This document shows, in pieces, positions 6,038 to 10,258 of a stretch of DNA of 64,000 nucleotides; the first letter of the stretch is position 1, and each line of letters starts with the position of its first letter. The stretch covers positions 67,264 through 131,263 of the forward strand of contig JBEPZV010000004.1 in NCBI GenBank assembly GCA_041640655.1. The letters run 5' to 3'. The position numbers were made by a program, and so were the translations under genes. This DNA comes from a bacterium. Lineage in GTDB: Bacteria; Acidobacteriota; Blastocatellia; HR10. The notes beneath the pieces are model-generated. The model did not search any database. It had not been told where the DNA came from and was given only the letters and a program-made list of their open reading frames with translations.

Positions 6038-7042
6038 TCATCGAGGTGGGGCCGTCGAATGCCGAATGATCAGCTCGCCCTGCATCCAGATCGTCTGCTG
6101 CGAGTTCTCCCCTCTGAGGAGTTGCAGCAGTAGCTCCATCGCGCGCCGTCCCATCTGTCGCTTCGGCTGCCGGATCGTCGTCAGCGGAGGCTCCGTGTAC
6201 GAGGCGATGAAGAGATCATCGAATCCCACGAGCGAGATGTCTTCCGGCACCCGAAGGCCTCTCATGCGGATCATGCGCAGCGCGCCGAGGGCCGTCATGT
6301 CGTTGTAACAGAAGACGGCCGTGGGAGGCGAAGTGAGCATCAGCAAGCGCTCCATCGCGCGCATTCCCTCCTCCGGCTTCCCATCGCCGTGGACGACCAG
6401 CTCCGGCTGAAACGTGAGCCCGGCGCGCTCGAGCGCCTGGCGGTATCCGGCGAAACGCTCAGTATCCGACTGATAGCCGAATTGATCGCCGATATACGCG
6501 ATGCGCCGATGGCCGAGCTGAATCAGGTGATCGGTCGCGGCGCGGCTGGCCGTGACGTTATCAATCATGACCGAATGCACGAATTCCCCAGGATGCTGAT
6601 TGTTGATGAGCACGATCGGGACCTTCATCTCGCTCAGGTGATCCATGTAGAGCGCACCGACGCGCGAGGCCGTCACCAAAATTCCATCCACGCGCCGCTC
6701 GTGGAAAGAGTGGACGACTTTGATCTCCCGATCCGGATCTGCATTGGAATTGGCCAGGAAGACCGAATAACCGTGATCGTTGGCCACCTCCTCGATTCCG
6801 CTGACCACCTCGGCGATAAACGGATCGGCGATCGTCGTGACGACGACGCCGATGGTCTTCGTCTTGCGCGTGACTAAGCTACGGGCGACAGCGCTCGGCC
6901 GGTATCCCATCTCCTCAGCGATCCGGCGGATGCGCTCAGCCGTCTCACGGCGAACGAGGGGACTGTTGTGCAAGGCCCGTGAGACAGTCGAATGCGAGAC
7001 CTTCGCCACGCGCGCGATGTCTTTGATCGAAACGGAGCTCAT
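6038..7042 (-). CDS. LacI-family transcriptional regulator (likely iol repressor)
   Basis: SIKDIARVAKVSHSTVSRAL HTH plus sugar-binding domain (GFDD, PPLTTI). Confidence 0.95.
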   Translation of the reverse strand: MSSVSIKDIARVAKVSHSTVSRALHNSPLVRRETAERIRRIAEEMGYRPSAVARSLVTRKTKTIGVVVTTIADPFIAEVVSGIEEVANDHGYSVFLANSNADPDREIKVVHSFHERRVDGILVTASRVGALYMDHLSEMKVPIVLINNQHPGEFVHSVMIDNVTASRAATDHLIQLGHRRIAYIGDQFGYQSDTERFAGYRQALERAGLTFQPELVVHGDGKPEEGMRAMERLLMLTSPPTAVFCYNDMTALGALRMIRMRGLRVPEDISLVGFDDLFIASYTEPPLTTIRQPKRQMGRRAMELLLQLLRGENSQQTIWMQGELIIRHSTAPPR

Positions 7043-7046
7043 AGGC

Positions 7047-7060
7047 TGCACACGTTTTCA
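7047..7060. promoter_or_regulatory. Probable LacI-type operator TGCACACGTTTTCA
   Basis: Pseudo-palindrome TG-N4-CG-N4-CA immediately upstream of the LacI gene start. Confidence 0.6.
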
Positions 7061-7143
7061 AAAGCTGGCCAAAGAGAAAATGGGCTCAACTCTCTGTTGA
7101 AGCTCATTGTCAACCCACGCCCTCCTCATCCTTGGAGCTTTTT

Positions 7144-7171
7144 ATCATATCGCGGATCTCCACCTTGTCAA
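7144..7171 (-). promoter_or_regulatory. sigma70 promoter of the lacI-iol operon
   Basis: TTGACA(7171-7166)-N16-TATGAT(7149-7144). Confidence 0.7.
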
Positions 7172-7185
7172 GATGGAAAAAATCA

Positions 7186-7213
7186 TTGACATTGCGAGGA
7201 ATTCGGCTATAAT
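7186..7213 (+). promoter_or_regulatory. sigma70 promoter of the TPR-HTH/peptide cassette
   Basis: Perfect TTGACA-N16-TATAAT. Confidence 0.8.
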
Positions 7214-7260
7214 TTGCAGTGTCTTTGGTCAAAAATCGTGAACGATCGGTGAAGGAGGTT

Positions 7261-8685
7261 ATGAGGACGACGAAGGTTCGAGAGATCGCGCTTTTGGAGC
7301 ACGCCGTCTTCTCCGGTCGGTTTCGAGAGGCCGAGCGGCTGGCCGAGGAGTTCTCGCCGACCGATTTGCGGTCGGCGGCCGCGAAGGCTCAGGTTTTGAT
7401 CTACAAGGGGGAGTTGGAGGAGGCCGGAGCGCTTCTGGAGGCCTTCGAGAAACGGCTCACCGAAGCGAACCTCAAGGAGGCGGCCGAGTTCGGTCTGGCG
7501 AAGGCCGAGTGGCATTATTGGCGGGGCGAGTATGAGGAGGCAGAGCGGCAGGCGCAGGTGGTTTTCGGGATTTACAGCCTGAATCGCGATCGCTTCGGGC
7601 TGGCGCGCGCGCTCTACGTGCTCGGGCGGGTGCATCGGCGTCAGGGGGATTACGAGCGGGCGCGACAAGAGATGCTTCAGGCGCTTGAGGAAGCTGAAGC
7701 GGTCACCGATCGGCCGACGGGATTTCTGCTTGGGCTCATCATGTTCAATCTCGGCGTGATCCATTACTTCCTGGGGGATCTCGCGCGCGCGGAAGAGGAG
7801 TTGCTGGCGGCGATCCGGGCGCTGGAGGACGAGCGGGGGCGGTACTACGGCAATGCCCTGAACTTCTATGGGACGTTGCTCATCGGGAAGGGACTGTATG
7901 AGGAGGCAGCGCGGATCATCCAGTCGGCCTACGAGTGCTTGTCCGAGAGCGCCTTCTTCGACGATTTGGCCCATGCGACGAACAATCTGGCCTATGCCTG
8001 TCTGCGCATGGGGCAATTTGAGCGCGCGTCGCGACTGCTCCATGAGAGCTTGGAGTTGCGCCGTCGGTCGAAGGACATCGCCGGAGAGTCGGCGACGCTG
8101 GAGCTCTTCGGGCGGCTTCGTTATGAGCAGGGACAACTGGGGGAGGCCGAACAGATCCTGCGGCAAGCGATCGAGCTGGCGGAATTGGGGAAGAACCCTC
8201 ATGAGAAGGCGGTCGCCTTGATCACCTTGGGGCGCGTGCTCATGGCTCAGGGGCGTCTGGACGAAAGCCAGCGGGCGCTTGAGGAGGCTCTTGATCTGGC
8301 CGTGCAGTTGAAGAACAAGTCGCTGCAGGCGGAGGGTCACGCCTATTTGGCGGAGCTGTGGGTCTATCGAGGCAACGGGATGCAGGCGTTGGAACATCTC
8401 AGGCGGACGAAGGCGTTCATCAATGGGCATCGCGATGCATATCTGCTCGCGCAGATTGAGCGCATTGAGCACTTGGTCCAGCAGCACCGGATCAAGGCCG
8501 AAGAGGGGGTCTTTATGATCCGCGGCAGCTTCCTACCGACTTGGCGGGAGGCGCATGAGATGTTGGGGAGGTTCCTTCTGGCGGAGGCGCTGCGGCATGC
8601 CGGTGAGAATCAGACGAAAGCCGCTGAGCTGCTCGGCGTCACTAAAGCCTATATCACCATGCTGCGGAAGAAGTACGGGATCTGA
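7261..8685 (+). CDS. TPR-repeat protein with C-terminal Fis-type HTH (putative peptide-sensing regulator)
   Basis: Multiple TPR-like helical repeats; C-terminus ALRHAGENQTKAAELLGVTKAYITMLRKKYGI; no AAA+ or receiver domain; AAGGAGG RBS. Confidence 0.85.
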   Translation: MRTTKVREIALLEHAVFSGRFREAERLAEEFSPTDLRSAAAKAQVLIYKGELEEAGALLEAFEKRLTEANLKEAAEFGLAKAEWHYWRGEYEEAERQAQVVFGIYSLNRDRFGLARALYVLGRVHRRQGDYERARQEMLQALEEAEAVTDRPTGFLLGLIMFNLGVIHYFLGDLARAEEELLAAIRALEDERGRYYGNALNFYGTLLIGKGLYEEAARIIQSAYECLSESAFFDDLAHATNNLAYACLRMGQFERASRLLHESLELRRRSKDIAGESATLELFGRLRYEQGQLGEAEQILRQAIELAELGKNPHEKAVALITLGRVLMAQGRLDESQRALEEALDLAVQLKNKSLQAEGHAYLAELWVYRGNGMQALEHLRRTKAFINGHRDAYLLAQIERIEHLVQQHRIKAEEGVFMIRGSFLPTWREAHEMLGRFLLAEALRHAGENQTKAAELLGVTKAYITMLRKKYGI

Positions 8686-8704
8686 TGAAGAGGAGGTGCG
8701 ATCT

Positions 8705-9073
8705 ATGAAGAGGGTACTCGCGGTCGCGTTCATCGTGTTCATGCTCGGGAGTTTCACCCTCCCGGTGCGGGCGGGGGTCACAGCGGGTGGAAAGCCCTAT
8801 GTGCCGGGCGCTGATCTCCCACTTGGAGGCGTCACGGCCGGAGGCCGACCGTTCATTGGCGGTGGCGGGGTCTTCACACCGACAGGATTCGGCTTGGGTG
8901 CTCAGTTCTATGATGACGAGGGATGGGATGCCGCATCAGATCCCTACGGGGGCATCGGTGGAGGAGCAGATCTCGGATGGGCACCCTCGTGGTCTTGGTG
9001 GGGATGGGGAGCGTGGGGCGTTCTCGACATCCTTTTCGGCATCCCGATGGCGTTCCTCTTCGCTATGTGGTGA
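8705..9073 (+). CDS. Small secreted Gly-rich precursor (122 aa) with repeated GVTAGG[KR]P motif
   Basis: GAGGAGGT RBS; Sec signal MKRVLAVAFIVFMLGSFTLPVRA; internal repeats differ mostly at third codon positions; hydrophobic C-terminal tail. Confidence 0.8.
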   Translation: MKRVLAVAFIVFMLGSFTLPVRAGVTAGGKPYVPGADLPLGGVTAGGRPFIGGGGVFTPTGFGLGAQFYDDEGWDAASDPYGGIGGGADLGWAPSWSWWGWGAWGVLDILFGIPMAFLFAMW

Positions 9074-9080
9074 GCGCCGT

Positions 9081-9110
9081 AGGGGGAATTCGCGAGAGCG
9101 AATCCCCCCT
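9081..9110. terminator. Hairpin between the convergent peptide gene and phoR
   Basis: AGGGGGAATTCGC-GAGA-GCGAATCCCCCCT (one mismatch); no U-tract. Confidence 0.55.
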
Positions 9111-9172
9111 GGAGCTTCTGCAGGGAGCCGTGGGATCTTTCGAGCGTCCCGCCGTGGGCTTCTCCCTGCTGC

Positions 9173-10258
9173 TCAGCCGGCGGTCTTCAAGCTGAAGGTG
9201 AACTCCGAACCTCTTCCGGGGTCGCTTCTGACAGTGATCTCCCCTCCGTGCAATTGGACGAGATGTTTCACAATGGCTAGGCCGAGGCCGCTGCCTCCCG
9301 TTTCCCGAGATCGAGATTTCTCGCCCCGATAGAAGCGCTCAAAGATACGCGGTTGGTCAGCCGGAGGAATGCCGATCCCGGTATCCGTGACGGCGACGAG
9401 GACGCGTTCACCGGAGCGGCGCGCCGTGATCCCCACATATCCTCCGGGCCGATTGAACTTGATGGCGTTATCCAGGAGATTTTGCAGAATCTGCGTCAAG
9501 CGGAAGGGGTCGGCTAAGACTTGTATGTCCTCGGGGACGTCGTTCGCGATCGAGATGCCGCGCTCTTGCGCCTGAGGCCGGATGAGAGCTAAGACGTCTT
9601 CGACGAGGGCGCGAAGCGGAAGGGCTTCGAGCGAGAGGGCGATGACGCCCGATTCGATCTCCGCCAGGTCGGTGATGTCGCGCACCAGGGCATGGAGGCG
9701 TTGGGCCTGTCGAAAGAGGCCCTCCAGGCATCGGCGCGCGTGCTCGGGATCCTCCAGGCCCACCTCCTGCAGGGTTTCCACATAGGCCAGGATCGCCGCC
9801 AGTGGCGTACGCAGTTCGTGCGAGAGATTGGCGAAGAAATCGCGCCGCACGCGCTCCAGATGCTCCAGCGCGGTGATCTCCACGAAGACGCCCAGAGCCG
9901 CCTGCGGTGCTTCAGAGGCGAAGCGAAGAGGAGTGATGGTGACATGGAACACGCGGGGCTCGCCGCGCTTCAGCTCAAAGCGCAGCTCACGGGATGTCCC
10001 CAGATCGAGTGCCTCACGGAATCCCTCGTGCAATGCGGGATCGCGGGTGAGGTCAATCAGTCGAAGAGGGCGGGAGGGGATCGGAGGCGGGGGGAAGATG
10101 GATTCGGCCGACGGATTTTGAACGAGGACGGTCGTCTCCCGATCCACGATGAGCAGACCTTCGCGCATAGCCGCGAGGACGGCCTGCCACACCGGATGGG
10201 GCGAGCGAACTAACTCCCGAAGGAGATCGCGATCGGCGCTCTCGGTGGCGGGTGTCAC
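9173..10258 (-). CDS. phoR: Phosphate regulon sensor histidine kinase (PAS-HisKA-HATPase, no TM segment seen)
   Basis: RRDFFANLSHELRTPL, NLLDNAIKF, DTGIGI, FERFYR, GSGLGL; pst context. Confidence 0.88.
   Translation of the reverse strand: MTPATESADRDLLRELVRSPHPVWQAVLAAMREGLLIVDRETTVLVQNPSAESIFPPPPIPSRPLRLIDLTRDPALHEGFREALDLGTSRELRFELKRGEPRVFHVTITPLRFASEAPQAALGVFVEITALEHLERVRRDFFANLSHELRTPLAAILAYVETLQEVGLEDPEHARRCLEGLFRQAQRLHALVRDITDLAEIESGVIALSLEALPLRALVEDVLALIRPQAQERGISIANDVPEDIQVLADPFRLTQILQNLLDNAIKFNRPGGYVGITARRSGERVLVAVTDTGIGIPPADQPRIFERFYRGEKSRSRETGGSGLGLAIVKHLVQLHGGEITVRSDPGRGSEFTFSLKTAG

Follow-up and report, generated by a model that had tools for sequence, protein, structure and literature searches.

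Does a bacterium with an outer membrane encode a peptide-sensing module of the RRNPP kind, in which a cytoplasmic tetratricopeptide repeat (TPR) receptor is paired with the gene of its own peptide precursor? This question is raised by a two-gene unit at positions 7186-9110 of a window of 64,000 nucleotides (nt), the whole stretch analysed here, which is a part of contig JBEPZV010000004.1 (G000:C4) of a 3.1-Mb acidobacterial metagenome-assembled genome (MAG). The MAG is approximately 90% complete, and its nearest named relatives are the hot-spring 'bacterium HR08/HR10' and Blastocatellia MAGs. The unit consists of a gene for a receptor-like regulator with a C-terminal helix-turn-helix (HTH) domain, followed on the same strand by a gene for a small, predicted Sec-exported protein with a repeated motif. 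An original prediction, made from the sequence of the window, had interpreted this unit as a peptide-sensing module resembling the RRNPP systems, and every checked feature of the unit was found where that prediction had placed it.

Peptide signalling through cytoplasmic TPR receptors is regarded as a trait of Gram-positive Bacillota and of their mobile elements, and quorum sensing of outer-membrane bacteria is described largely as small-molecule signalling. In its accessible text, the RRNPP_detector paper presents RRNPP systems as Firmicutes systems (PMC10075063); a word search of that text returned no occurrence of Acidobacteria or diderm, and a word search of the accessible text of PMC9765709 returned no occurrence of Acidobacteria. 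A full-text literature search, within the portions of the sources that it covered, found no description of a TPR-HTH receptor-peptide pair in Acidobacteria. We consider the unit to be a real, undescribed, RRNPP-like candidate. The reading that we favour is that the pair forms an autonomous RRNPP-like autoinducer loop working across the outer membrane, with a probability of roughly 0.45. This reading draws on the anatomy of the genes, their conserved pairing, selection on both copies of the motif, a Rap-like model of the receptor and a narrow distribution of the family.

Conserved pairing of the two genes

The homologue search took in 61 related genomes, and related loci were searched with a 7-row receptor alignment. 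In the window's order, each of the 12 genomes (G000-G011) has a full-length receptor orthologue (48-100% identity), and the small signal-peptide gene lies directly downstream of the receptor gene in each of the 12 whole-genome loci, which represent five genera. The same arrangement was observed in 8/8 loci of named genomes, which are largely duplicates of the whole genomes. In the metagenome loci, the small gene is complete in 10 of the 12 and cut by the contig end in one; in the remaining locus, where no more than 203 nt of sequence follow, it was not seen. All these counts refer to the main receptor clade, which has 100/100 tree support. The gap between the two genes is 19-26 nt in family-level orthologues. 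The test that was set in advance, namely that a linked signal-peptide gene with repeats should accompany the receptor and change with it, was positive in the orthologous loci with enough DNA. A search with the small protein recognises the window's own family only (8 of the 61 genomes), because outside this family just the layout and the motif persist.

The genes flanking the pair vary from genus to genus, and none besides the pair is conserved as a neighbour. This observation bears on the possibility that the small protein is a bacteriocin-like precursor, or a precursor of a ribosomally synthesized and post-translationally modified peptide (RiPP), and that the TPR-HTH protein is the regulator of its pathway. 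The product is Gly-rich, hydrophobic, small and, by prediction, secreted, and the best NCBIfam match of the receptor is a TPR protein of a cyclophane RiPP cluster; with 78 bits versus a cut-off of 1125, however, this match represents generic TPR similarity. Beside the pair, there is no conserved gene for a modifying enzyme, for immunity or for a dedicated transporter, and RiPP precursors seldom carry a Sec signal peptide, such that the one predicted here would be unusual. We consider a RiPP or bacteriocin pathway very improbable.

The receptor family is small and narrow in its distribution, being found in some Blastocatellia. Of the 301 genomes of the phylum that were sampled, four contain the family at E <=1e-40, and these four belong to the window's class. 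Among the best 150 matches out of 1.84 billion representative proteins, the C-terminal HTH is reached by approximately 18 clusters that are full-length and 7 that are partial, and the remaining clusters are giant multi-TPR proteins. It should be noted that the public record of one orthologue with 81% identity (L040) is titled 'uncultured Clostridia bacterium'. A genome search puts the matching genome (G006) in the window's genus, and the record was probably mislabelled and is not evidence of an RRNPP-like system in Bacillota.

A motif in two copies

The small precursor with a repeated short motif that had been predicted 19 nt after the receptor gene was recovered as a protein of 122 amino acids (aa) with the arrangement GVTAGGKP...GVTAGGRP; orthologous small proteins are 105-126 aa long. 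The Ala at position -1 of the predicted cleavage site is invariant (13/13 aligned orthologues), and in every variant the motif starts at +1 after the AxA site. The sequence of the motif depends on the genus: it is GVTAGG[KR]P or GVTMGG[KR]P in the window's genus and GQTHGGRPF in the next genus, and the other variants are REGHTGRPGG, RESHAG[RK]P and GDTHGGGP. The middle of the protein is Gly-rich and predicted to be disordered, and an AlphaFold2 model (predicted local distance difference test, pLDDT, 46.5) contains helices at residues 2-17 and 97-121 only. The small protein had no match in Pfam, NCBIfam or PADLOC, the ESM Atlas gave no usable look-alike, and a PDB sequence search with the small-protein profile yielded nothing under E 0.18.

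We compared the two copies of the motif within each of nine proteins. In eight of these, 7-10 of the 8-10 residues are identical between the copies; the exception is a metagenome variant (L061) with a degenerate first copy, in which 2 of 8 residues are identical. The copies are separated by a fixed spacing of 18 aa, or 19 aa in one case, and share only 1-5 codons. Because the copies mostly use different codons, selection on the peptide, and not recent gene conversion, keeps them alike, and the codon comparison thus indicates that both copies are under selection. The change from Ala to Met (GVTAGG to GVTMGG) affected both copies each time, in two non-sister lineages of the receptor tree, one of which has an Ala-type sequence as its sister (support 100/99). 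Between the two Met lineages, there was no sign of recombination.

The receptor and its modelled fold

The original prediction described a TPR protein of 474 aa that ends in a Fis-type HTH, and this description agrees with our results, strongly for the repeats and weakly, with corroboration, for the HTH. The receptor has no signal peptide. TPR_12 matches with E 9e-28, TPR_MalT with 74.6 bits (cut-off 45), and further TPR families score above their cut-offs. The match to HTH_8 (PF02954) at aa 439-461 is weak (E 0.011, 15.8 bits versus a gathering score of 22); Fis families of NCBIfam match the C-terminus with E 0.0024, and PF02954 is precomputed on three homologues (P0008-P0010). An AlphaFold2 model built with 22 family sequences (pLDDT 91.0; predicted TM-score, pTM, 0.83) contains about ten TPR pairs at aa 1-410, a beta hairpin at aa 411-420, and a three-helix C-terminal domain at aa 428-472. 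The Asn residues noted earlier in the TPR helices are all present, i.e., N163 in FNLG, N198 and N201 in NALNFYG, and N241 and N242 in TNNLA.

When the fold of the model was compared with the solved RRNPP receptors, a resemblance was apparent, with 10-14% identity in the structural alignments. Pheromone-bound Rap proteins are the closest likeness of the modelled TPR domain. The Foldseek list is headed by LGN/Pins peptide complexes and designed TPRs (E ~1e-10), and Rap and NprR follow from rank 34. Among solved structures, kinesin light chain (E 1e-20) is the best match by sequence. Like LGN/Pins, it wraps a TPR superhelix around an extended peptide, and the likeness of both proteins to the receptor is that of the repeat fold; these proteins and APPBP2, the receptor of the RxxGP degron, are eukaryotic scaffolds or ubiquitin-ligase adaptors, unlike the receptor described here. 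MalT and AfsR have a similar sensor TPR domain, as the TPR_MalT score shows, but differ in having ATPase modules, other HTH types and no adjacent ligand gene. In a test for a MalT-type ATPase, only TPR_MalT matched the 474-aa receptor, with no ATPase or LuxR HTH family. PADLOC returned generic TPR models only, and among the NCBIfam TPR matches there is a weak one to SctY, a chaperone of the type III secretion system (E 1.9e-6, far under the cut-off).

A second receptor lineage with the motif

The same genome contains two further full-length receptor paralogues (contig C40), and this second receptor lineage has 36-40% identity to the window's receptor. The first paralogue (36% identity) is followed, after approximately 200 nt, by a 30-aa open reading frame (ORF) that ends in GV[SG][HQN]GG in 7/7 genomes of the genus, one of them with a broken receptor copy. 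Its ribosome-binding site (RBS) is conserved, and its variable sites, 13/5/20 at the three codon positions, are concentrated at the third. The ORF has a promoter-like site of its own, TTGCCT-N17-TATAAT, and a structured leader of ~110 nt; Rfam gave chance-level matches only in the region between the paralogous receptor gene and the ORF. In another genus with a matching receptor, a 55-aa ORF downstream encodes a signal peptide, GDGHTGHR and a hydrophobic helix (2/2 genomes). The deepest split of the receptor tree separates the window's clade (100/100) from the remaining receptors, and motif genes are found on both sides. Because the 122-, 55- and 30-aa products have just a hydrophobic segment and the motif in common, we conclude that the motif travels with the receptor.

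The 30-aa ORF has a formal likeness to the short hydrophobic peptides (SHPs) of the streptococcal Rgg-SHP systems. Mature SHPs, in the accessible part of the source, are C-terminal octapeptides that start with Asp or Glu, several of them ending in Gly-Gly, e.g., DILIIVGG and DIIIIVGG (PMC3679016). The 30-aa ORF is likewise short, hydrophobic and devoid of a Sec-type cleavage site, and its last eight residues, D-x-G-V-[SG]-[HQN]-G-G, have the Asp start and the Gly-Gly end. The tail of the ORF is polar, whereas that of SHPs is hydrophobic, and for the ORF, processing by an Eep/RseP-type protease and export by PptAB are hypothetical. This likeness concerns the paralogous locus and not the window's gene, and there is no homology behind it.

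The three types of product also bear on a secretion-coupled feedback, in which the TPR domain would bind the precursor before its export, either where the signal peptide meets the motif or, in the case of the 30-aa product, at its tail, and would report the capacity for export or membrane insertion but not cell density. Such a feedback requires no release, outer-membrane passage or re-import, and it accounts for the position of the motif directly behind a hydrophobic segment in all three product types. The N-terminus of the 30-aa peptide carries no positive charge, so that its C-terminal motif could face the cytoplasm, and the weak SctY match points in the same direction. Type III secretion TPR chaperones can double as co-activators and would be an analogue. 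Against this, the feedback leaves unexplained the second, internal copy, which is under selection at a fixed spacing; the AxA sites exactly before copy 1 in all long forms suggest that the mature N-terminus matters; and the structural neighbours of the receptor model are receptors of mature pheromones. Secretion-coupled feedback is judged improbable.

Other small ORFs were observed near receptor genes. In three other genera, mini-ORFs of ~35 aa, 1-4 of them in tandem, lie upstream of the receptor gene and divergent from it (L009 3184-3746, L010 3121-3231, L011 3131-3241 and L012 3308-3415, all on the plus strand). Their products have a conserved start, Q-L-G-Q-I-D-P, contain a Leu/Ala-rich hydrophobic core and end in a lipobox-like G-x-C-P, e.g., MNKIKQQLGQIDPITLLLALLLALGTGACPISF, and in two loci the mini-ORFs are followed by a gene for a sigma factor of the extracytoplasmic function (ECF) type. 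These mini-ORFs could be a second kind of exported mini-peptide tied to the same receptor; a search for tandem mini-ORFs in the window's own genome found none. At loci L014-L020, where another family of the class has a distantly related TPR-HTH clade, a near-identical 50-aa zinc-ribbon-like ORF (MKCPKCFNPLRRVASTEDSVWFTCPLGHRFHSETGSGISDSEGHRY...) is found in several genera ~500 nt upstream of the receptor homologue.

Comparison with RRNPP systems

Among the nearest known counterparts of the unit are the RRNPP(A) systems, namely Rap-Phr, NprR-NprX, PlcR-PapR and AimR-AimP, in which a cytoplasmic receptor adjoins its propeptide gene. Membership in RRNPP was judged by the five-point signature of PMC10075063. 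As far as the accessible text of that paper goes, the signature includes a receptor of 250-500 aa with peptide-binding TPRs and an adjoining propeptide gene, with reference gaps of -50 to 191 bp; the propeptides are exported by Sec (SignalP) or PptAB; and validated propeptides have 21-50 aa, with an upper limit of 100 aa in RRNPP_detector (PMC10075063). The unit shares with these systems the length of the receptor (474 aa), the TPRs, here predicted to bind peptide, and the same-strand adjacency with a 19-nt gap. Sec export of the small protein is probable from inspection of its sequence, and would bring the agreement to four of the five points. Propeptides with several copies of the peptide are on record for RRNPPA systems in the accessible text of PMC9765709, which is comparable to the two motif copies found here (PMC9765709).

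The differences are the following: (i) the HTH is C-terminal and probably of the Fis/NtrC type, whereas RRNPP receptors have an N-terminal XRE-type HTH or, in Rap, an N-terminal helical effector domain; (ii) the motif lies at the N-terminus of the mature chain, whereas theirs is C-terminal; (iii) the unit belongs to an outer-membrane bacterium of the Acidobacteriota, whereas their hosts are Bacillota, their phages and plasmids. The phage Rap pheromones RRGHTAS and SRGHTS resemble the REGHTGRP variant, which is a curiosity and not evidence. Taken together, the unit would work like an RRNPP system yet cannot be filed as a member. The RRNPP-like interpretation of the original prediction is supported in part: the conserved linked motif gene, the motif ORF of the second receptor lineage, the genome-wide count of the motif and the Rap-like model speak for it, and the missing sequence homology and the size of the 122-aa product speak against it.

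Several observations weigh against a peptide-sensing loop. The receptor has no detectable homology to Rap, NprR, PlcR, PrgX, Rgg or AimR; no RRNPP-specific family was found for it in Pfam or NCBIfam; and no RRNPP chain is present among its 68 PDB sequence matches at E <=0.001. With 122 aa and a conserved, hydrophobic C-terminus, the product is larger and more elaborate than validated propeptides. In the paralogous locus, the 30-aa ORF has no usable signal-peptidase site in 4 of the 7 genomes (L, K, K and N at -1). Three other receptor clades showed no linked small ORF, either hydrophobic or with the motif, in the 900 nt to each side; these receptors may be orphans, or their partners may have been missed by the search filters. 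Two further observations speak for the loop, each with a limit. The pattern G[VQD][TS][AHMQN]GG occurs 20 times over the six frames of the whole genome and lies behind a hydrophobic segment in two ORFs only, the 122- and 30-aa genes, but the pattern was written after these loci were seen, so that the count indicates specificity and is not a blind test. Where a motif gene is linked to the receptor, N163, N201, N241 and N242 are largely retained, N163 and N242 in nearly every aligned sequence, and all four are substituted in two of the clades that lack such a gene; the third of these clades has N163 and N242, and the pattern represents few independent events, the clades being related.

Covariation between motif and receptor was analysed at the residue level. 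At three receptor columns, V166G (beside N163), T383A and Q407R, both GVTMGG lineages share a residue that no GVTAGG sequence has, and the overlap of lineage-specific receptor columns between these lineages is 7 (hypergeometric P 0.024). In the control, comparison of one of the lineages with nine other, unrelated clades gave 0-4 same-residue parallel changes, i.e., the three covarying columns are not in excess. Residue-level covariation was dropped as support because the signal did not exceed the control.

The remaining objections come from the build of the small protein. Its C-terminal helix is conserved and its last residue is aromatic in all variants, features that a disposable pro-region would not need, and the fixed 18-aa spacing fits an intact protein bound as one unit better than free peptides. 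The same features, along with the conserved Trp-rich belt, suit an arrangement of regulator and cargo without direct contact: the small protein would be a membrane-anchored, Gly/Trp-rich periplasmic protein, the motif would bind another envelope partner, and the TPR-HTH protein would control expression in response to an unrelated ligand. The size of 105-126 aa, together with the spacing, is compatible with a single folded or bound unit, and residues 24-71 are almost invariant within the family, i.e., beyond the two motifs. This arrangement does not account well for the presence of the motif, in three product formats, alongside two receptor lineages or for the Asn residues that track the presence of the small gene; moreover, no further gene is conserved beside the pair, with flanks that differ among genera. 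We consider a periplasmic cargo protein, the main rival of the loop, somewhat unlikely.

A putative signalling loop

Under the reading that we favour, an RRNPP-like autoinducer loop, we infer export, cleavage, release, re-import, binding and DNA targets as follows. The strong, constitutive-type promoter would give one mRNA for both the cytoplasmic transcription factor and the small pre-protein. The pre-protein would be exported by Sec and cut after PVRA23, and the mature chain would start with GVTAGGKP, with the second copy 18 residues on. The Trp-rich stretch and hydrophobic helix at the C-terminus probably tether the mature protein at the outer face of the inner membrane, where proteases may free short motif peptides, two per precursor. 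These peptides would accumulate and re-enter the cell via porins and an importer of the Opp/Dpp type; the genome encodes three SBP_bac_5 (Opp/Dpp-type) genes, a permissive fact for re-import. Inside the cell, they would bind within the concavity of the TPR superhelix, where Asn163, Asn201, Asn241 and Asn242 are candidate groove residues, and binding would alter the contact of the HTH, probably as a dimer, with DNA at its own promoter region and at other targets.

A more far-reaching claim is that Blastocatellia use pheromone peptides encoded in their genomes, with a Rap-like TPR protein as the cytoplasmic receptor. This would be true RRNPP-type quorum sensing across an outer membrane, with precursors of the Sec type in the window and of the SHP-like type in the paralogous locus, and with a receptor fold distantly related to Rap. 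We regard this claim as somewhat unlikely.

Promoter region, flanks and expression

The coordinates of the features are collected in Table 1.

Table 1. Features of the two-gene unit and of the paralogous 30-aa ORF; positions are those of the window unless a locus is given
Feature	Position	Strand	Remark
Sigma-70-type promoter TTGACA-N16-TATAAT of the two-gene unit	7186-7213	+	12/12 matches
Divergent promoter-like site TTGACA-N16-TATGAT, LacI-type gene	7144-7171	-	11/12 matches
Palindrome AATCGTGAACGATC in predicted 5' leader	7234-7247	+	Conserved in most, not all, genus-level orthologues
Receptor-like regulator, 474 aa	7261-8685	+	ATG 7261, stop 8683-8685, RBS AAGGAGG 7252-7258
Probable Fis/NtrC-type three-helix HTH	aa 428-472, nt 8542-8676	+	AlphaFold2 model and weak family matches
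Intergenic gap, 19 nt	8686-8704	+	RBS GAGGAGG 8690-8696; read from sequence
Small exported protein, 122 aa, predicted	8705-9073	+	ATG 8705, stop 9071-9073
Sec-type signal peptide (by inspection)	aa 1-23, nt 8705-8773	+	MKR, 16-residue hydrophobic core, cut between PVRA and G
Motif copy 1, GVTAGGKP	aa 24-31, nt 8774-8797	+	
Motif copy 2, GVTAGGRP	aa 42-49, nt 8828-8851	+	
Trp-rich stretch and hydrophobic C-terminal helix	aa 97-121, nt 8993-9067	+	
GC-rich hairpin between small gene and convergent PhoR-like gene	9081-9110	+	dG -32.3 kcal/mol, z -4.06
30-aa ORF MELWLLILFAFYRFFVQFVNVLDAGVSHGG beside paralogous TPR-HTH gene	L021 3275-3367	-	G000:C40

The promoter had been predicted as perfect, and its boxes, TTGACA at 7186-7191 and TATAAT at 7208-7213 with a 16-nt spacer, match at every position. 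Two promoter-like sites were found in 6900-9400, compared to a mean of 0.5 in shuffled sequence, and TTGACA-N16/17-TATAAT/TATAGT is retained in 11/11 aligned orthologous upstream regions, the second genus included. The -35 boxes of the back-to-back promoters at 7144-7213 make an inverted repeat, TTGTCAAG-N12-CTTGACA, which persists in orthologous loci even with a different upstream gene and is a possible operator. An alignment of the upstream regions from 11 orthologous loci shows that the element TATCATA...TTGTCAAG is kept. That the leader palindrome AATCGTGAACGATC is a regulator-binding site is a guess; a genome-wide pattern search for it gave 122 matches at <=2 mismatches, mostly ordinary sequence, and is uninformative on a regulon.

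The hairpin that had been noted after the small gene is present, and 0 of 200 shuffles fold equally well. No U-tract or T-run follows it, and a terminator scan of the region gave 0 sites; it is probably a terminator, possibly bidirectional. Upstream, the unit is flanked by IolD/IolC/IolB genes of inositol catabolism and the divergent LacI-type gene; downstream and convergent are genes for a PhoR-like kinase, a PhoB-like regulator, PhoU, PstB and a phosphate porin. Of the two envelope genes that the original prediction had cited as signs of an outer membrane, the phosphate porin is confirmed in the window, whereas no TonB receptor was found among the 27 other ORFs scanned.

The stretch, or a part of it, is held as contigs in 20 public runs, mostly hot-spring or sediment metagenomes and one metatranscriptome. 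The contigs of the metatranscriptome come from a relative, are mostly 95-99% alike, and cover three pieces of the receptor gene. One RNA-library contig of 1079 nt spans 8595-9400, reaching from the 3' end of the receptor gene across the gap, the small gene and the hairpin into the end of the convergent kinase gene. By bridging 8686-8704, it lends weak support to joint expression, as contigs cannot show a single transcript and DNA may contaminate the library. The RNA-library contigs leave 7129-7256 (the promoter region), 7472-7559 and 7812-8009 uncovered, and such contig gaps are not evidence. Within the HTH-coding region, a 34-nt piece at 8591-8624 has an approximately 15-fold higher word depth in the RNA run and breaks the contigs; it is probably a word common to the paralogous HTH regions of several strains.

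Implications

With an acidobacterial receptor-peptide pair, peptide signalling through cytoplasmic TPR receptors would extend to a further phylum and to another type of envelope; should the more far-reaching claim hold, this signalling principle would occur beyond Bacillota and would not depend on a monoderm envelope. The natural pairs with GVTAGG, GVTMGG and GQTHGG motifs are a ready specificity series. For a poorly studied and mostly uncultured phylum, the pair would offer a first handle on cell-cell or envelope signalling.

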